From Nitrosopumilus sp. (GTDB lineage Archaea; Thermoproteota; Nitrososphaeria; Nitrososphaerales; Nitrosopumilaceae), in NCBI GenBank assembly GCA_965249555.1, contig OZ252243.1, forward strand, positions 1,888,001 to 1,952,000: DNA of 64,000 nt, written 5' to 3'. Each line of letters begins with the position of its first letter. The stretch's first letter is position 1. A model generated the notes under the pieces. The model was not told where the DNA came from, searched no databases, and saw only the letters and a program-made list of their open reading frames with translations. The translations under genes were made by a program, and so were the position numbers. Below, piece after piece: positions 43,019 through 64,000 of this stretch.

Positions 43019-46000
43019 CTAAAATTTATCCAGTCCTTTTTCTCCAAGAGACTCGTCAAATTTTTCAGGAGTGATAAACATTGCACCCACTAGCTTTAGT
43101 TCAGGTTCCTGTCTCTGTCCTTCCTCTCTGGCCTTGACGGGGGTTGTCTCTTCCTGTATTCCTATAAATCCACCCAATTTTTTTATTCCAGTTATCAGAC
43201 TCGTCATATCTTGACTTCGTTGATATTCTGAAAGTAACGAGTTCAAATCATCAGGCCACTGTCGCAGATATTCTGACTGTATAATGTTGATTGTCTCTTT
43301 GCCCTCATCTTTGATAATTTTCCCTTCTAATATTGCATCCAACACAACCTTGCATACAGCATCAACATTTCTGTCATGCTTTTGGCGTTTTGTACTGTTA
43401 CTATTTTTGGCATCTAATGACACTGTATCATTTTTTTTCTTTATTGCCTCTCGTGCCTTTTTATCTATTTTTAATAACAGTTCAAATGATTTTTGATTAT
43501 CTTCACCATCCATTGGAAGATGAGTAAAAGTATCTTTCATGCAGGAAGCAAGACGTATTACTTCAGAATCATCATCAGGCACCGCTGCCTTGTCTGTCTT
43601 GAAATCATAACGTACAAAATATACACGCCATTCTGGTTTTTCTTGCAGGTATGCCAGAACCGTCTTTTGACTTTCTCCTTTCTTACCGCTACGTCTTCCT
43701 ATTGGAATATCTTGAACCGTCTCCATTCCCTTTTCCTTGATGAACCGTCCAAGCTCATTAATTGGCGATAATGCCGGCATTACATCGGATTCTTTTTCCA
43801 TTTTTTGGATTAGTTCATCAGAGCCATCCTTACCTGCAAGTACCTTGATTCTCTGCATGGCACCATTGAACTGTTTTGGGGTGGGGGCTTCTCCCAATAT
43901 CTCTGAATCTCCTCCAATTACCTCATCTACAACATGTATCTTGTCTAACAATTTTCCCATCAATCTCAAAATATCATCCAGTTCCTTGTCCGGATAACAT
44001 GCTCTTGTATGAATCACATCATATGTGCTAGTAAGTCTGTCAATTCTGCCTGTTCTCTGGACAATTCTCATCGGATTCCAGGGAAGATCATAGTTAATCA
44101 CATAGTTGCAGTCTTGAAGATTCTGTCCTTCTGCCAAGACCTCAGTTGATATCAGTATGTCTATCTCTTTTTCTTCCAGTGTGTCACCTTCTGGCAGATT
44201 TGCTTTGGGCGAGAATCGTCGGATATACTTTATTCTTGTATCCTGGTTTGTGTTTCCGGTAATGATTTGGATAACATTGTTTGGGAATTTTTCTTCTAGT
44301 TTTTTTGTAATGTATCTGGCAGTTGCAGTATATTCTGTAAATATCAAGAGTTTTTTGCTCTCATTTTCCAATACTTTTTCCCTTAGGATTGTTTTTGTAA
44401 CCTCGTCAATCTTTGTGTCAACTGTTATCTTTTTGACCTCCTCTAGTAGGTTTTCCAATATTTCCAAATCTTTTTGCATGTCTTGTTTTAGAGTTTCAAT
44501 ATCGTAATTTCTGCTAATCTTTTCTTTTGGGATATCTTCAATTTCTTTGAGGAAAAACTTCATCTTTTCATCCTCATCTGTATCCGTACTTGGATCCTCA
44601 CCGGATTCTGCAGAACTCCATTTTGCAATTATCTTGTTAAAGTCTCCAACTCGTAGGATTTTTCCCTCATCAAACACTTTTTTGATATATGTGTAGAGAT
44701 TCACTTTGTTCTCAATGCTTATTCTTACTGCCTCTACGCTGCTCTCAAATCTTTTTAATAATAATATGACTTGAAGATGTCCTACTGCCCTGTACTTGTT
44801 TCTCTCTTCTTCAGTTAGGCTTGTGTCATACTTGTCTATTCCATATGGTGCCATTGTTAATCTGCCAATATCATCTAATATCTTTTGAAAAATATTTCCA
44901 AACAATTCAGAAAGACTATACTCTATCGAAGAATATTGATGATCTGGAAACTTTATTTTTTTACCCTCTATCTTGTCATCCTTATACACGTCTTTGATGT
45001 ATGACCTAGTACGCCTAACCATCACCATATCTAGTAATTGCTCTATCTTTTCTAATCCCTGTGCAAGATCCTTGTTTGTCGCATCCCTCATGTGTTTGTA
45101 CAGGTCTGGTATTCCAATTTGACGAGAAAAGTAATCATCATTTCCGCCTGTAATTATTGATAATTGATAGTACAAATCCATCAGAGAGTTGTTAATTGGT
45201 GTCGCAGTTAGTAATATTGCCTGCTTTCTTTTTCCAACACTCATTAATTTCATCAGATTCTTTCTCCTGTTTGCACTCTTTGTTCGAAAGTTTTGGGACT
45301 CGTCAATTAGTACCAGATCAATATTTTTATATTTACCAAGTGTCTCTATAATCTCTTCTCTGCCAAGTGACTCCATTGTCAGCATTTCCCGGACATTGAT
45401 GTCCACTTCTTTTAGTTTCTCCTTCCACATGCTGTTTAAAACCTGGGATGGTGCAATGAGCAGAACCTTTTTACCCTCTTTTAGTATTTTTTGCCGTACC
45501 ATCTCTATTCCGATATTGGTCTTGCCAAGTCCTGTTGCATCTGCAATTATAACCCCGCCAAATTCTGATACAATGAACAGTCCTGCCTGTACTGCATCAT
45601 GCTGAAATTTTGTTAGCACCTTGTTGCTTTTTGTATCCTGTTCAACTTTTTCAAGCAACGGCCTGAACCGCTCAAAGAGCATCTTCATGTAAATCGGGTA
45701 TGGTTCGGATGGAGTGCCAAACTTTGACTGCCTTAGGACATCGATTAATTCCTGTTTTTTATCATCTGCATTATCCCACATTCTATCAAACCATTCCCGG
45801 GTAGCCTCTGTGACTCCTGGCTGATACAGTCCTGCATTTAGCTCATAATTCTGGGTCATTCCGCCTGCTGTAAAGTTACTAGAGCCGATAAAGACCGAGT
45901 TCTCTCCAAATATGTAGCATTTGGAGTGATTGAACCTGTTTCCACCAATACGGACCTTGATGTTTTCTTTCTCCAACAAATTGATCAAGGCAGTTGTATC

Positions 46001-46327
46001 GTCTTTATGCTCTACTGTAAGATCAGTATCATCAAGACTTGTCTTTAGTGATTTCATTTTGATAAATTCTTCATGCTGTTTTACTAATTTTTCAAAAGAG
46101 CCTTCCATAGGCAATATTGCATCCTTGCCAAGCAGCAATCTCAACTCAAATGACGGGTCTTTTGCTGCCTTGTCTAGTTCCTCACGAAGCATGCCATACC
46201 CTCGCACATCAAAGTATCCAGTTGAGATATCCAACTGTTTGACAAGTGGAATTTCTGAATTGAGAATTTTCTGCATGGTGATATCTTTCGAGTTATCGAT
46301 GATGTCTTTTTTAATTCTCTTGCCCAT
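43019..46327 (-). CDS. PLD-nuclease + SNF2/SF2 helicase fusion
   Basis: HSKCYIF…GSSNFT…NYELN; DATGLGKT; IDESQ; TATPINN; EGQNLQ; QRTGRIDR. Confidence 0.93.
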   Translation of the reverse strand: MGKRIKKDIIDNSKDITMQKILNSEIPLVKQLDISTGYFDVRGYGMLREELDKAAKDPSFELRLLLGKDAILPMEGSFEKLVKQHEEFIKMKSLKTSLDDTDLTVEHKDDTTALINLLEKENIKVRIGGNRFNHSKCYIFGENSVFIGSSNFTAGGMTQNYELNAGLYQPGVTEATREWFDRMWDNADDKKQELIDVLRQSKFGTPSEPYPIYMKMLFERFRPLLEKVEQDTKSNKVLTKFQHDAVQAGLFIVSEFGGVIIADATGLGKTNIGIEMVRQKILKEGKKVLLIAPSQVLNSMWKEKLKEVDINVREMLTMESLGREEIIETLGKYKNIDLVLIDESQNFRTKSANRRKNLMKLMSVGKRKQAILLTATPINNSLMDLYYQLSIITGGNDDYFSRQIGIPDLYKHMRDATNKDLAQGLEKIEQLLDMVMVRRTRSYIKDVYKDDKIEGKKIKFPDHQYSSIEYSLSELFGNIFQKILDDIGRLTMAPYGIDKYDTSLTEEERNKYRAVGHLQVILLLKRFESSVEAVRISIENKVNLYTYIKKVFDEGKILRVGDFNKIIAKWSSAESGEDPSTDTDEDEKMKFFLKEIEDIPKEKISRNYDIETLKQDMQKDLEILENLLEEVKKITVDTKIDEVTKTILREKVLENESKKLLIFTEYTATARYITKKLEEKFPNNVIQIITGNTNQDTRIKYIRRFSPKANLPEGDTLEEKEIDILISTEVLAEGQNLQDCNYVINYDLPWNPMRIVQRTGRIDRLTSTYDVIHTRACYPDKELDDILRLMGKLLDKIHVVDEVIGGDSEILGEAPTPKQFNGAMQRIKVLAGKDGSDELIQKMEKESDVMPALSPINELGRFIKEKGMETVQDIPIGRRSGKKGESQKTVLAYLQEKPEWRVYFVRYDFKTDKAAVPDDDSEVIRLASCMKDTFTHLPMDGEDNQKSFELLLKIDKKAREAIKKKNDTVSLDAKNSNSTKRQKHDRNVDAVCKVVLDAILEGKIIKDEGKETINIIQSEYLRQWPDDLNSLLSEYQRSQDMTSLITGIKKLGGFIGIQEETTPVKAREEGQRQEPELKLVGAMFITPEKFDESLGEKGLDKF

Positions 46328-49300
46328 TTTGTTTCTCCTCTGGTTTTTGTTTTAGTGTTGATATGTCGGAATTAAGATCATAATATTTCATAACCCGTTT
46401 GTACACCTCACCATAAAATCTTCGCATATGTTCATTTCTATCTGAATCTGATAGTTTTGTATAGTTTACATTATTGGATAGTTCGTCTTCTGAAAAGGAA
46501 TTTTTATCGGATTTAAAATTTTGTAATATACTTTCATATTCACTTTGTGTTAATCCGTATTGTAGTGCCGATAATGCATCAATTTCGGATGTTATTTCTA
46601 TACGGTTAATCAATTGCAAATTCTCAACATCTTTCTTAGAAATAGAAAACACATCGGCCATATCTTCATGCCATGTTTCAGAAAGTGTGAGCATTGCACT
46701 TAATTTGGATATTTTCTTAGCTATATCACTTGTAAAATTTTCTGGTACTGGTGTATCATACAAATGATATGTCTCAACATGTTTGTCAATTTTGAGTCTT
46801 ATAATAAAATCAAATGTGGTAGAATTGAATATTCCGCATAGATATGCATTGAGTTTATGATAATCAGAAGAAATTTCAAACATACCAATACGTGGTATTG
46901 CCATATAGGTGGCTATTGTTGTAAATACGGATTGTGGTATGATACATGAGATCATTGTCCGTGTATTGCTAGTTCCGCTAACGTTTCTATACACAAGTCG
47001 TGGATTGTCGTGGATTTCTTTACTCTGACTATTAAATTTTGCAATAGTTTTAACTCGTGTTAATGTTTTTTTAACGTCTGCACGATATTGCGGTGTAGAA
47101 TAATTATGAATATGTTGATGAAAGTTTTTTGATTGAAATACTGGCCAACCTCCTTCTTTAATGAGTAATTTCCTATCTTTTTTCTCTCCCATGTTTAATT
47201 CTCTACCTAAATCGACTTGCCAAATTTTCATGTCTTCGAGCCTAGGATGTAATGCATATAATTTCTGCATTATTTCATAATCTTTTTGATTTTTGACTTC
47301 ATAAATCAATGACATTTTTGGGGATAATTCATTAATCTTCTTTTTAGATAAAACTAATGATTTATTTTCCAAATTGTCCAATTCATCTAAAGTTTGCAGA
47401 TAAAAGGCAGCAGGAAATTTATCAGAACCTTTAGAATTTTGAACACTTAAGAGAGCAAATCTATAAGCAGAATGAATTGGAAAAATCTTTTTTCTATTTT
47501 CAAAAATACAAAGTGATTTTATGTTCTTTGTTAGAAAATGTTTTCTTAATGCAGTAGCCCCTCTTGAATTTGCTATTGCAGATGGCATCACCATTGAAAA
47601 CATTCCACCGGGTGCCAATACCTGTAATGAACGTTCAATAATTATTCGATACAAATCAAAATCAGTGTTCTCACCCAAACCCCCATGGTTTTTATAAAAT
47701 TCTCTTTTATCATCAAAACCTTTTTTGTATTTTTTATATTCTTCATCATATTTTTTTCGTGTTTTTTCCTTATCTTTGGTAGATTTGTCCCTGTATTCGA
47801 AATCTAAATTCCCAAAAAATTCATTGTTATTGGGTCTTACTTTATCCCAAGGGGGGTTCCCAATTATCAAATCAAACCCTCGTCTTGAATCAGTAAATGC
47901 ATCCATCATTGCTAATTCCCATTGGAAAAATCTATAGGTATTAGATTTGTTACGAATGTTTTGAATTGTTAACTTTTCGTCTTGATTCATATCTGCTCCT
48001 AAAACCACATCAGAGATTCGTTTAAGATAAGCTGGAATATTTTTTTGTGCTTTTTTTGGTATAATATCATTATCCATTTTTAATGCAGTTATTGTGTCGA
48101 GCATCATTTTGTGTGGTCTAATTTGTTTCATGTATTCGGCATAGGCGTTTTTACTATCTTGTACTTGACCTACCGTAATATCTGAATTATGCCCCACAAG
48201 AGTGATAAATTTGGAAGATTTTTCAGGATCTTCAATCCAATTATCAAGACTTTGTTCTGTGGGATTTTTTAATTCATCAAGACGTACTCCTATTGTGGAA
48301 TCTCCATTTTTGATATGATGATCCATGTATGTTAATGGAACACCTATTGCAAAGGAATCAAGCCATAAGGATAACTTTGCCAGATTTACTGCCATTGGGT
48401 TGAGGTCAACTCCAAATATACATCGCTTCATTATTTTGCGTTTTAATAATACGTCATGAGTGAGAAGATTTTCATCTATTGTGATTTTATTTTTCTTTTG
48501 CTCTGCAAGTATTGTCATTCTATCTGATTCAATCTCTTCTAATAATGGATGCCCAGGGTATGTCTTGAGTATATCAGTTGCCCACATGGTAATTCTATTC
48601 AAAGATTCTACAAGAAAATGCCCACTTCCCATTGATGGGTCTAATACCTGTATGTCAAGTATTCGATCCATACATGTTTTCAAATCTTTTTCATTCTTAC
48701 TTTTTTTATATTGTTTCACATCTTCTGCAATTAATTTTTCACGTTCATCAAATATGGGATTCAATCCCTGGTTTACTAGAAATGTTACAATCTCATCTGG
48801 GGTGTAAAAGCTGGCTGAGGTCTTTCGTGATACAATGCCCCCTTTTGATGCAAGATACAGGTCATTTTTCTTGTAAGAGTACGTTGCATCCTTTTGCGTT
48901 TTTATCTCTCTTACTCCCTTTGAATCTTCAAGTAGCATGATGTCTTTTTCAGTCTGACGTGGACTGAATTCCATCAAGGTCTCAAAGATGTTCCCTAAAT
49001 GTCTGACACTAAAATCTGCATAATCTATTGCCCCTCCATCATCTTCCAAAAGACCATAAAGTGCATTTACAATAAACTTGTTCCCAATTGATATGTCGTC
49101 AATAGATGGGTCTTTTTTAAACAAATCCCCGTTGTATTGTGGAAGATTGTGTTTCTGGCTTCCGTTTCTTATTCCATCAAACAGAACAAGTAGAGCCTTC
49201 CAACACTCATCATCAGTATTTTTTTCAAAAGAATCAAGATGGTTCCGAATTGATTGCAGTGATATTGGCTTGTATTTTGCATCTCTAGTGGGTAAAAGAT

Positions 49301-50378
49301 TTCTAGATTCAGCATATGCCAAGAACCATATGCGGTACATTATTTTCAGAGAGGTCTGTTTTGCTGATTCCAATTCCTCACTTGTAAATGTCTTTTTCAT
49401 GTCATGCTCAAGAACACCCTTTACAATATCCAAGAACAGTCCATCCGGACTCATTATATTATCTGAAAGATTTTCCTCTATCTCTTTGGCATAGTTTTTG
49501 CCCTCTTCAAAGAATGAATCAATATCCCTTTTCTCACCTATTTTTTCAAATGATGCCGCACCAAACAACATTATGAGATATTTTGTAATACTGTCCTGTG
49601 CAGAGTCTAGTGATATCTCAAAATAATTAGTACTCGATGCGGAAATTTTGGCAGAATAAAGTCTCCATTTTTTGCCATTAGTAAGTATTGCCCACTGTGA
49701 TTCACGTAATGTGGCAACTGCAATATAGCTTGGGGCGACCTCTGTTTCATTTTTTCTAATGCTGAGATTGTCCTGATCTGTAACAGTTATGGATACTGTT
49801 TTGTCAAAATATGGACCAGAATTTGAAATATCCCAACCCAATTCAAAAAGCAGTTGTTCTGTATCTCCTATCTTTTCTTTTGCATTCCCTAGTTTGTCGT
49901 CAACATTTTGTCGTGTGTCTGTAAATATTCTGTTACGTAGATAGTGGGTAGAAAATAATCCCCTGTTTACAAAATCTCCTGTGGCATTTGATATTTTGTC
50001 AATTAATGTTCGGATTGCAAGCTGTAGATCAATATCATCCTGTGCGCTTTCCATGTTTGTTGATTTTAAAATGTTCGTAACACGTTGATATTCTGAATCA
50101 TTTTCCAAAGATATAGTGTAACTTTGATCTAATGATTTGAAAAATAAGATATTTTTTTCTTTTAAAAATATAATACATGTGTTGAAATTTTTTGTCTGTT
50201 TTTTTACTTCTCGAACATTTTTTGGTCCGCTTTCAACAAATATGATCGGAACTTTTTTTGACGGATTTAGATGATTAAGACTGTAGCAAAGCCATTCTTT
50301 GTGAAGTGGTGGTTGTATCTCTCGTTTGGTATCAAGACTGACTCCCATTGAGGCAAATAATGTCTCTTGTGAAGACAA
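46311..50378 (-). CDS. Type IIG / Eco57I-like N6-adenine DNA methyltransferase (REase-MTase-TRD architecture)
   Basis: LTNGKKWRLY, FYTPDEIV, LDPSMGSGHFL, IGNPPW. Confidence 0.93.
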   Translation of the reverse strand: MSSQETLFASMGVSLDTKREIQPPLHKEWLCYSLNHLNPSKKVPIIFVESGPKNVREVKKQTKNFNTCIIFLKEKNILFFKSLDQSYTISLENDSEYQRVTNILKSTNMESAQDDIDLQLAIRTLIDKISNATGDFVNRGLFSTHYLRNRIFTDTRQNVDDKLGNAKEKIGDTEQLLFELGWDISNSGPYFDKTVSITVTDQDNLSIRKNETEVAPSYIAVATLRESQWAILTNGKKWRLYSAKISASSTNYFEISLDSAQDSITKYLIMLFGAASFEKIGEKRDIDSFFEEGKNYAKEIEENLSDNIMSPDGLFLDIVKGVLEHDMKKTFTSEELESAKQTSLKIMYRIWFLAYAESRNLLPTRDAKYKPISLQSIRNHLDSFEKNTDDECWKALLVLFDGIRNGSQKHNLPQYNGDLFKKDPSIDDISIGNKFIVNALYGLLEDDGGAIDYADFSVRHLGNIFETLMEFSPRQTEKDIMLLEDSKGVREIKTQKDATYSYKKNDLYLASKGGIVSRKTSASFYTPDEIVTFLVNQGLNPIFDEREKLIAEDVKQYKKSKNEKDLKTCMDRILDIQVLDPSMGSGHFLVESLNRITMWATDILKTYPGHPLLEEIESDRMTILAEQKKNKITIDENLLTHDVLLKRKIMKRCIFGVDLNPMAVNLAKLSLWLDSFAIGVPLTYMDHHIKNGDSTIGVRLDELKNPTEQSLDNWIEDPEKSSKFITLVGHNSDITVGQVQDSKNAYAEYMKQIRPHKMMLDTITALKMDNDIIPKKAQKNIPAYLKRISDVVLGADMNQDEKLTIQNIRNKSNTYRFFQWELAMMDAFTDSRRGFDLIIGNPPWDKVRPNNNEFFGNLDFEYRDKSTKDKEKTRKKYDEEYKKYKKGFDDKREFYKNHGGLGENTDFDLYRIIIERSLQVLAPGGMFSMVMPSAIANSRGATALRKHFLTKNIKSLCIFENRKKIFPIHSAYRFALLSVQNSKGSDKFPAAFYLQTLDELDNLENKSLVLSKKKINELSPKMSLIYEVKNQKDYEIMQKLYALHPRLEDMKIWQVDLGRELNMGEKKDRKLLIKEGGWPVFQSKNFHQHIHNYSTPQYRADVKKTLTRVKTIAKFNSQSKEIHDNPRLVYRNVSGTSNTRTMISCIIPQSVFTTIATYMAIPRIGMFEISSDYHKLNAYLCGIFNSTTFDFIIRLKIDKHVETYHLYDTPVPENFTSDIAKKISKLSAMLTLSETWHEDMADVFSISKKDVENLQLINRIEITSEIDALSALQYGLTQSEYESILQNFKSDKNSFSEDELSNNVNYTKLSDSDRNEHMRRFYGEVYKRVMKYYDLNSDISTLKQKPEEKQNGQEN

Positions 50379-59750: not shown

Positions 59751-60059
59751 CTATTCTAGTTTATCAATTCTATTACTTAATGTTTCTATTCCTTGACCAT
59801 TTGCAGTTGCAATTTCAATAACATTATCTAGTTTTTTATTCATAGTATCTAATTTTGTGCAGTTGATAGCAACTTGTTCTTTCAGTCCTCTAACTTCATT
59901 TTTTACTTCTGAGGATTGTTCTCTTAATCCACTAACTTCATTTTTTACTTCTGAGGATTGTTCTCTTAATCCACTAACTTCATTTTTTACTTCTGAGAAT
60001 TGTTCTCTTAATCCACTAACTTCATTTATCAGTTCATCTGCCCATTGGGGTTTTTCCAT
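59751..60059 (-). CDS. Coiled-coil protein with 14-aa repeats
   Basis: EVSGLREQSSEVKN repeats. Confidence 0.75.
   Translation of the reverse strand: MEKPQWADELINEVSGLREQFSEVKNEVSGLREQSSEVKNEVSGLREQSSEVKNEVRGLKEQVAINCTKLDTMNKKLDNVIEIATANGQGIETLSNRIDKLE
59890..60027. repeat. 42-bp tandem repeat x3.3 (in frame)
   Basis: CTAACTTCATT at 59890, 59932, 59974, 60016. Confidence 0.95.
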
Positions 60060-61662: not shown

Positions 61663-62105
61663 TCATTGGTATATGTGGCAGTAGTGTAAAGAAGTGTAAA
61701 GAAATCTGCTATTGCCATACCAAACTGATGATGATTCCATGACAATATTGGCATGAATCGGTATGTCTGTAAAATGGTTCTTGATTGATTCATGAGTGTT
61801 CTCAACTTTTATGTTTTGTAATATCTTTCCGTCATTATCCATTGTTGCTACTTGAAGAGATTCCTTGTGCAAGTCAATGCCAACATACATGCCCTTGTCT
61901 TTTTTTGCCCTAATCTGTTTCTTTGGACTTTTCTTGGAATACGATGGATTACGAGTCCTGGATCTGGGTTCATTTTTTATGCTATCTGAATTCCTTCTTT
62001 TTGTATTCACATATAGTTATTTTATCATCTCAGAAAACATGCTCAATCCCCTTGGTTTCCCGTGCCTCAAGGCATGCAAGAAAGACGGAGATCATCCTCA
62101 TACCC
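61663..62105 (-). mobile_element. IS110-family 5' fragment (transposase N-terminus and upstream region)
   Basis: MYVGIDLHKE…VMESSSVWY, truncated. Confidence 0.85.
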
Positions 62106-62539: not shown

Positions 62540-64000
62540 ATGACGAAGAAAATTAATAAAGAATCTGTAAACATAATAGATGAGAAAATATCTATTTTAA
62601 AGAAAAACTTTCCTGAATGCTTTATCGGGGGGGGGGGGGTTAAATTTTGATAGACTTAGAAACTCTTTAGGGGATCTGGTGGATACGGGGGATGAAAAAT
62701 ACACATTTTCTTGGGCTGGTAGGAAAGACACATTCGAAAATATTCAGACAACTAGCAAGGGAACACTTATTCCAGATAAATCTGAATCTGTAAACTTTGA
62801 TGATACGGAAAATCTTTTCATTGAGGGTGATAATTTGGAAGTCTTAAAATTATTGCATAAATCATTATTTCAAAAAGTTAAAATTATTTACATTGATCCC
62901 CCATACAATATAGGTAGTGATTTCATCTACAAAGACGATTTCAAAAAAGGTGTAAATAATTATCTGGAGCAGACAAATCAATCAAAAGACGGAATAACAT
63001 TAACCACAAATCCAGAAACATCTGGACGATTTCATTCTGATTGGATATCATTTATGTATGCAAGATTGTTTGTGGCTAAAAATTTACTTTCTGATGATGG
63101 TGTGATCTTTGTATCTATTGGTGACAATGAAGTTCATAATTTGAAATTTATAATGAATGATATATTCGGAGAAGAAAACTTGATATCAGAAGTTATTTGG
63201 CATAGCAAGTACACTACGTCAAATGATAAAAAACTCATATCTACACAGCATGAATATGTCATGATTTATGCAAAAAATATTCATAGAGCAAATTTCAACC
63301 TATTGCCACGTACAGAAAAAGCTGACAAGGATTACAAAAATCCAGACAACGATCCTCGTGGAAAATGGAAGCCCACACCAATACATGCAAAGAGTGGTAA
63401 AAATAATATAAAATATAATTTTACTAACATACGCAAGTTTGACGGCAAAAAAATACCCTCTTTTGTTTGGTCTGCACCAAAAGGAAGATATCCAAGATAT
63501 AGCAAAGAAACACTGGGAAGACTTGAGGCAGACAATAGAATAAGCTGTGGTATAAATGGAACAGGTGTGCCTAATTCCAAAACTTTTCTCAATGAAGTCC
63601 AACAAGGAATGGTATCAGGGTCTTTATGGAAATATGAGGATGTGGGACATACCCATGGAGCAAATGAGGAATTATCCGATTTGATAGGTAAGGGTGTTTT
63701 TGATAATCCAAAACCTGTGAAATTAATTAAAAGAATATTACAGTTATCAACAAATTCAAAAGGTAATGATATTGTATTGGATTTTTTTGCTGGCTCTGGA
63801 ACCACCGCACACTCTGTATTGGGATTAAACAAAGAAGATGGTGGAAATAGAAAATTTATTTGTGTTCAAATACCAGAAACAATAGAGGATGAACTAGAAA
63901 ACAAACCCACAATAGATTTCTTAAAAGAATTAAAAAAACCCATGAATATTTCCGAAATATGCAAGGAAAGAATAAGACGTGTTATCAAGAATCTAGATTC
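62540..64000 (+). CDS. mod: Type III R-M methyltransferase Mod, frameshifted at a G13 tract; runs off window
   Basis: NFPECF…, YTFSWAG, NLFIEGDNLEVLKLL, YIDPPYN (62895), DFFAGSGTTAH (63780). Confidence 0.93.
62627..62639 (+). repeat. Poly-G homopolymer G13 inside mod 5' coding region
   Basis: Seen directly; longest G/C run noticed in this AT-rich window. Confidence 0.97.

Follow-up and report, generated by a model that had tools for sequence, protein, structure and literature searches.

A candidate slippage-driven poly-G switch in a Type III restriction-modification operon of a Nitrosopumilus archaeon

Phase variation by slippage at simple repeats is a textbook bacterial strategy and has been studied almost only in pathogens. 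In Campylobacter jejuni, a bacterium of low guanine-plus-cytosine (GC) content with no detectable mismatch repair, a few tracts of G8 to G13 lie in genes for surface structures and for restriction-modification (R-M). The poly-G contingency loci described for this species include the phase-variable Type IIG R-M gene cj0031 (PMC4889913, PMC3025981). Simple sequence repeats (SSRs) are also reported in 662 of the 3805 Type III mod genes in REBASE, with mononucleotide runs counted from at least nine bases (PMC5909438). The present study concerns a run of 13 G (G13) inside the mod gene of a Type III R-M operon in an archaeon. The gene lies in a 64,000-nucleotide stretch of Nitrosopumilus sp. DNA (hereafter the window), which corresponds to bases 1888001-1952000 of the single-contig genome G000 (2,230,439 bp, 34.4% GC). 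Because this genome encodes an archaeal-type amoA (E-value (E) 1.5e-117), the host is an ammonia-oxidising archaeon, as an earlier sequence-only reading of the window had proposed. It appears reasonably probable that the G13 is a slippage-driven ON/OFF contingency switch of the whole Type III R-M system. The mechanism is of a known kind, and what would be new is the domain of life and the lifestyle in which it occurs.

The locus shares with the SSR-switched bacterial mod genes, as far as these are described in the main text of PMC5909438, a run of at least nine bases in the 5' part of the mod open reading frame (ORF), a toggling between full-length and truncated Mod by a change of one base, and the order mod then res; the G13, inside the 5' ORF of mod, falls within the mononucleotide SSR definition used there. 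It differs from bacterial phasevarions in that its host is an archaeon and a free-living chemolithoautotroph, and in that it is known here from sequence alone. The mod gene begins at ATG 62540 on the forward strand, and its 5' segment, comprising the start codon and codons 1-29 (62540-62626, +), ends in a conserved ...PECF motif. The homopolymeric tract, a putative slippage switch, occupies 62627-62639 (+); it begins 87 nucleotides, or 29 codons, from the ATG, exactly at a codon boundary, and spans codons 30-33. At the present tract length a TGA at 62648-62650 (+) closes the ATG frame after 36 residues, the OFF state, and the main body of mod, with its DPPY and FxGxG motifs, runs in the +1 frame from 62640 (+) to the end of the window at 64000 and on to genome position 1952400. 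In its coordinates for the ATG, the tract, the stop and the start of the adjacent frame, the sequence-only reading agrees with the sequence. Its statement that the adjacent frame stays open to the window end also holds, at 453 amino acids without a stop over 62640-63998, as does its failure to find a second lesion in mod, the frame after the tract being open for 586 codons in the genome. Frame computation gives the same switch positions as that reading, with tracts of 12 or 15 G in frame and full length, and tracts of 13 or 14 out of frame.

At their N-termini, full-length homologues of Mod (G177, P0003, P0005, P0007, P0010) align with the 29 residues before the tract, which therefore do not stem from a chance ORF. 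The N-terminal alignment with homologues of 600-625 amino acids is residue by residue, and mod aligns to them at 100% coverage. Where these homologues carry the motif ...PEC/VF-T/S-E-G-K-I/L-D-F..., G000 has ...PECFI, the tract and then LNFD, and the tract stands at the place at which they encode E-G-K/T. Because the tract in this way takes the place of three codons in a motif conserved at the N-terminus, ATG 62540 is the true start, and the tract is intragenic, as had been claimed. The comparison with mod orthologues that had been suggested as a check was carried out, and the orthologues in the same-genus genomes G195 and G177 have no tract in mod; in G177 the codons at the tract position are GAA GGG ACT. 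From these ordinary codons in both orthologues, the tract would appear to be a derived state. The same N-terminal segment (...FP.C/T...) in which the tract lies is also common to EcoP15I Mod (4zcf) and Helicobacter pylori Mod (6k0w), and the mod genes of both have no homopolymer at that place. The absence of the gene from the ORF list had been noted as well, and this was right of the full-length mod, which is uncalled, and wrong of a truncated product of 573 amino acids, P0002, which the gene caller starts at an internal GTG (62679-62681, +) and which is without the conserved N-terminal ~46 residues.

The assignment to Type III, also made by the sequence-only reading, is upheld by several matches. 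The mod frame matches the Pfam family PF01555 N6_N4_Mtase (E 1.7e-37 and 6.2e-36, above cut-off), the solved Type III Mod of H. pylori (PDB 6k0w_B, E 4.7e-67, residues 56-490) and EcoP15I Mod (PDB 4zcf_A, E 1.1e-52). In the translation, motif IV (IDPPYN) precedes motif I (DFFAGSG), which is the order of beta-class N6-adenine methyltransferases and Type III Mod proteins. A res gene, which it had been advised to look for downstream of the window, is present there and intact, with 857 codons at genome positions 1952411-1954984, outside the window, co-oriented with mod and starting 10 nucleotides after the mod stop. Its product contains ResIII (E 1.2e-16) and RE_endonuc (E 4e-30) domains by Pfam, matches EcoP15I Res (PDB 4zcf_C, E 5.2e-60), and scores E 2.1e-86 and 290.8 bits against the NCBIfam model NF012027 "type III R-M system endonuclease", for which the equivalog cut-off, at 564, is higher. 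The tract aside, mod and res together make up 1,443 codons without stops or shifts. Because the mod matches adjoin an intact res with ResIII and RE_endonuc domains, the locus is, on homology, a complete Type III R-M operon (mod then res), the sole defect of which is the frame at the tract. The motif that it recognises is not readable, because its central target-recognition region differs from those of EcoP15I and H. pylori Mod.

A chance origin of the tract is excluded. In G000 there is one G/C run of at least 13 bases, against 0.0004 (independent bases) to 0.0007 (first-order Markov) expected, and there are nine runs of at least 10, against 0.08-0.13 expected under the same two models. The counts for lengths 4 to 9 are 2474, 409, 51, 7, 1 and 1, and for lengths 10 to 13 they are 2, 4, 2 and 1, so that the distribution is bimodal, with runs of 6-8 below expectation and runs of 10-13 in excess. 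GGG is the rarest glycine codon, at 7.0% of 25,991 glycine codons in 720 long frames, yet all-GGG runs of Gly-Gly-Gly number 6 of 116, against ~0.04 expected; the G runs thus belong to the DNA sequence as such and not to the protein.

The G13 is also not alone in the genome. The sequence-only reading had found no other G run longer than 6, which is correct for the window (three G6 and none longer) and does not extend to the genome, in which there are ten further G/C runs of at least 8 bases: six in surface-protein genes, one short remnant (46418), one in-frame G8 (343400) and two intergenic runs. This genome-wide set of long tracts, mostly in surface-protein genes, was missed by that reading and is the strongest context for the locus. 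The six surface-gene runs (loci L026-L031, at G000:C1 499852, 708997, 1798981, 1833927, 2133085 and 2178472) are tracts of G10-G12 among the codons for the signal peptide. The genes, 1563-1999 codons long, encode giant secreted proteins that contain fn3 and bacterial surface immunoglobulin-like domains. Three of these tracts are in frame, with lengths of 11, 11 and 11, and three are out of frame, with lengths of 10, 12 and 12; the frames behind the out-of-frame tracts are unbroken for 1941, 1619 and 1999 codons. Five of the six genes have in common a near-identical 5' cassette, consisting of ~230 nucleotides upstream and the signal peptide, after which they diverge (alignment A1), and a DNA search of 100 other genomes of the genus returned no match to the cassette. 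In three more paralogues (21078, 46288 and 526921) the run is broken by A or T. One of the two intergenic runs is a poly-C that separates the stop of tfb from the start of sufC (G000:C1 1551230-1551239, L033), and it is kept at the orthologous site in three species of the genus (L033, L065 of G195 and L049 of G060) at lengths of 10, 11 and 12. This run is not a frame switch; it could act as an element of a promoter or terminator, or as a switch of spacing.

No MutS_V (PF00488), MutL_C (PF08676) or NucS_C (PF01939; NucS/EndoMS) domain was found in the 99.97%-complete, single-contig G000, in a search for which these domains were positive in 11, 11 and 6, respectively, of 14 control genomes. Taken together, R-M and surface genes with 5' tracts, in mixed states and with no mismatch repair detected, make up the pattern that bacterial contingency repertoires are known to show. 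In the mechanism proposed for the mod locus, replication slippage would lengthen or shorten the tract in steps of a single G and would go uncorrected, with no MutS/MutL or NucS detected. Lengths of 12 and 15 would then yield a full-length Mod of ~620 amino acids, and at lengths of 13 and 14 translation would end after 36 or so codons. It is established for enzymes of the EcoP15I type that Type III Res depends on Mod for target recognition. Since Res needs Mod, switching would turn methylation and restriction on and off together, and with an intact res this joint ON/OFF of restriction and modification would be its first-order effect. Individual lineages might switch in this way as a bet-hedge, in which defence against viruses is set against the cost of the R-M system or the self-damage that it causes. 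We infer, on this mechanism, a switching rate, reversibility, an active ON protein and a selective benefit. A phasevarion, in which methylation by Mod would control a regulon, is possible, and, with res intact, a role in defence is no less likely than one in regulation.

Information on tract length is available from Logan contigs of three public runs (X1-X3), which belong to a single study and may include the source of the assembly itself; X3 shares its sample with X1, and X2 is a different sample of the same organism. The assembly has G13. In X1 a single contig crosses the locus with one extra G, giving G14, at a depth of 5452, and in X3 the G14 contig has a depth of 7128 against ~7500 (7497) in its flanks; because these two depths are nearly equal, the X3 library appears to read the tract cleanly. 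In X2 the assembly graph breaks at the tract, and the two bridging unitigs listed have G14 (depth 64.9) and G13 (50.2), against 632-1022 in the flanks. The length thus differs between data sets, and within X2 as well, as seen at contig level in one study and at a run of 13-14 bases at which stutter is possible; the difference is suggestive support for polymorphism. At every length observed, whether in the assembly or among the listed contigs of the read sets, the population is OFF. A fourth run, X4, covers only 62892-63113 of the window, at a depth of at most 3. Two X3 contigs leave the locus, at window positions 62626 (the 5' edge of the tract) and 63058, for GC-rich sequence that is absent from G000, and both are probably chimeras formed with other DNA of the sample.

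Comparisons with relatives were made in a family sample of 201 genomes, G000 included. Mod homologues at E of at most 1e-20 are present in 17 of the 201, and the nearest named homologues in a protein search are Nitrosopumilus and Nitrosotalea records. Among 24 loci returned, G/C runs of at least 8 bases at or in a methylase gene occur in four other genomes. In G052 (L012) a G17 lies just after FxGxG, and in G037 (L018) a G11 lies just after DPPY, the gene being split into two frames in both; in G097 (L009) a C8 at the 5' end, between the ATG and the conserved N-terminus, puts the gene out of frame, and in G028 a C9 lies near the methylase 5' end, with an ambiguous reading. The G097 gene has a second frame break downstream, and its bin is 76% complete; for these reasons, and because G052 is GC-rich, the G097 and G052 cases weigh less. 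The same-genus G195 has a G10 (L073, G195:C1:758096-758106) that separates a short ATG from a beta-class methylase (SPPY ... FAGSG) and is again out of frame: in-frame lengths would be 9 or 12 from the short ATG and 8 or 11 for a fusion with the upstream ORF, and G10 fits neither. This genome has 23 tracts of at least 10 bases in 1.9 Mb, at ~33-40% local GC, several of which fall within N-terminal parts of ORFs of more than 499 codons. Among 120 listed Mod homologues, one of P0105 and P0055 has GGGG at residues 6-9 and the other PPPPP at residues 4-8, and these N-termini are possible in-frame 5' homopolymers.

Runs of G10 occur in 80 of the 201 family genomes, in a count that takes in G000 and the unpublished G077. 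The idea of a family-wide phenomenon was rejected for the genomes with hundreds of hits, in which most of the runs, to judge from the regions sampled, are near chance expectation. Twenty tract regions of G052, drawn from ~85 listed forward-strand places among its 231 tracts, have 55-77% GC and include several from one repeat, so that most of its runs are near chance; those of G110 have 45-57% GC. High GC largely accounts for the very high counts of genus g2 and of G110, which are excluded from support, and only the low-GC genomes G000, G195, G060, G177 and G096 are treated as informative. In the draft relative G033 (150 contigs), many G runs of at least 10 lie within 70 nucleotides of contig ends; these are possible assembly artefacts, arising from breaks at poly-G or padding with it, and call for caution with counts from draft genomes.

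A number of these observations weigh against a functional switch, and several would also fit a recent pseudogene, that is, a gene knocked out by slippage, with a G run that drifts without selection in a locus headed for loss and no useful reversal. No G12 or G15 is found among the contigs listed, and the two lengths that are found, 13 and 14, are both OFF. Contigs confound true heterogeneity with stutter in the library or in sequencing at a homopolymer of 13-14 bases, and all three informative runs come from one study, perhaps including the source of the assembly. The tract-bearing methylase genes are out of frame in five cases out of five, as decay also predicts, and L009 has its second frame break. 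The best non-self protein is only 69% identical, no near relative with the same tract having been found to show natural length polymorphism, and a pattern of the exact flanks in which the number of G was left free had 0 hits among metagenome contigs. The tract, moreover, takes the place of an acidic residue, E or D in 110 of the 110 listed homologues having the N-terminus (91 matched by a pattern that requires E or D; of 28 others inspected by eye, 19 contain this region, in every case with E or D, and 9 are without the N-terminus), so that the in-frame protein is no more than putatively active. EcoP15I Mod has a one-residue insertion exactly at the tract point in a HMMER alignment, and the loop is accordingly not fixed in length and tolerates change. 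Decay would also suit the frequent gain and loss of R-M systems, the IS110 transposase fragment beside the locus and the GC content of mod-res, 31.9% against 34.4% in the genome. It is, however, difficult to reconcile with 1,443 intact codons of mod and res in an AT-rich genome, or with the absence of any single-step route from codons such as GAA GGG ACT to a long G run; because such a run cannot arise in one step, repeated expansion is implied, with the rest of the operon kept intact. The deficit of runs of 6-8 and excess of 10-13, and the six surface genes of the same architecture, with mixed frame states and intact frames of 1600-2000 codons, also speak against it, and recent decay is considered unlikely, albeit not negligibly so.

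Length miscounting, expression despite the frameshift and a functional short protein are all given much lower weight than decay. In bacteria, slippage of transcription at long homopolymers is an established phenomenon, for the most part at A/T runs. Stuttering of RNA polymerase, or a ribosomal frameshift at what is formally a slippery heptamer (G GGG GGG), might restore the frame in some molecules, so that the gene would be always on and the tract would tune its level, and the intact ORFs behind out-of-frame tracts would be compatible with this; the mixed lengths of 10, 11 and 12 in near-identical paralogue cassettes fit switching at the DNA level more simply, and constant expression is judged improbable. 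A true tract fixed in frame, at G12 or G15, and miscounted in the assembly would undo the switch, as would a poly-G artefact of two-colour chemistry; of these, a fixed G12 and the two-colour artefact had been named beforehand. Homopolymers of this length are difficult on every platform, the assembly has G13 where the X1 and X3 contigs have G14, and in the fragmented G033 many G tracts lie close to contig ends. The tract of G000 is nevertheless internal to a single-contig genome, the contigs of three runs cross it with 13 or 14 G and, among those listed, none with 12 or 15, and the near-equality of tract and flank depth in X3 argues for a clean read-through. A fixed G12 is disfavoured by the G14 and G13 of the listed read-derived contigs, and the two-colour artefact is excluded by homologous coding sequence on both flanks together with the presence of the tract in three runs; overall, an artefact of either kind is very improbable. 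The slightest chance of all is given to the possibility that a truncated Mod from GTG 62679 is made and works, which would render the frameshift irrelevant. A purine-rich AGGGGA lies just upstream of this GTG, P0002 is the automatic gene call, and two database proteins, P0102 (579 amino acids) and P0114 (568), likewise begin just before an ...EKY.F.W.G motif. The ~46 residues that such a protein would lack are conserved from the clade to the Mod proteins of H. pylori and EcoP15I, however, and because P0114 mirrors a P0110-like protein of 609 amino acids, of which it is an internal-Met version, the short entries look like truncated calls and not like a natural short form.

The slippage switch proposed for mod may be part of a wider repertoire. 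That G000 and at least one congener (G195, with its 23 tracts) run a multi-locus poly-G contingency repertoire, in which Type III R-M, other methylases and giant surface proteins would vary by slippage in the absence of MutS/L or NucS, is a proposal for and against which the present evidence stands about level. One of the closest likenesses is to C. jejuni, with which G000 has in common a low GC content, no detected mismatch repair, tracts in surface and R-M genes, and mixed ON and OFF states within one genome. C. jejuni is a host-adapted bacterium for which switching rates and phenotypes have been measured, whereas for G000 the evidence consists of sequence anatomy and a contig-level difference in length. 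The surface genes of G000 also differ from those of C. jejuni, in that they encode giant secreted proteins with FN3 and immunoglobulin-like domains and have a common 5' cassette.

The surroundings of the operon include further features. Directly upstream of mod lies the fragment of an IS110-family transposase (window 61663-62010, -; PF01548, E 6.9e-06, below cut-off), and a peptide similar to the N-terminus of this fragment adjoins the surface-gene tract at genome position 708997. An ORF of 102 amino acids at window 59751-60059 (-), in a variable stretch upstream of the R-M operon, contains four tandem units of ~13 residues (EVSGLREQ.SEVKN) and is coiled-coil-like. At window 43019-50378 (-), ~12 kilobases from the Type III operon, two adjacent genes encode a protein with a PLD nuclease and an SNF2/DEAD helicase (1102 amino acids) and an Eco57I/MmeI-like methyltransferase (1355 amino acids), a pair that resembles a second defence system.

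In the literature, the stem "archae" is absent from the main text of the survey of SSR-bearing mod genes, the supplementary list of which, with its 662 genes, could hold archaeal entries (PMC5909438). Surveys of archaeal R-M systems treat phase-variable systems as bacterial work only, in the sections that concern them (PMC10609329, PMC11033074), and the passages covered of a 2026 review of prokaryotic DNA methylation mention no archaeal phase-variable methylase (PMC13076061). In a 2025 review of phase variation, the relevant parts present it as an open question whether multi-locus repertoires are restricted to pathogens, and assign archaea to future work (PMC11868660). A survey of 2010 included 18 archaeal genomes; in the parts dealing with them, its archaeal results take a statistical form and have poly(A)/poly(T) runs as their subject (PMC2831843). 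A 2025 preprint states that contingency loci "have been described in archaea", with a 1987 paper on simple repeats as the sole citation (10.1101/2025.10.21.683753). Full-text searches turned up neither an SSR-switched methylase from an archaeon nor any account of poly-G tracts in Nitrosopumilus.

The multi-locus repertoire, should it exist, would be the first documented case of SSR phase variation in Archaea, with a free-living chemolithoautotroph as its host and not a host-adapted pathogen. The organism is cultivable enough for deep read sets, so that the question of switching is directly testable. Given a real switch, genome annotation would be affected, in that switched genes would be called as truncated or missed, and so would methylome studies, because motifs may be only partially methylated. 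Archaeal viruses would be the likely selective force, and stochastic switching of defence and cell-surface genes, in organisms that are among the most abundant microbes of ocean and soil, would bear on the virus-host dynamics of nitrifiers.

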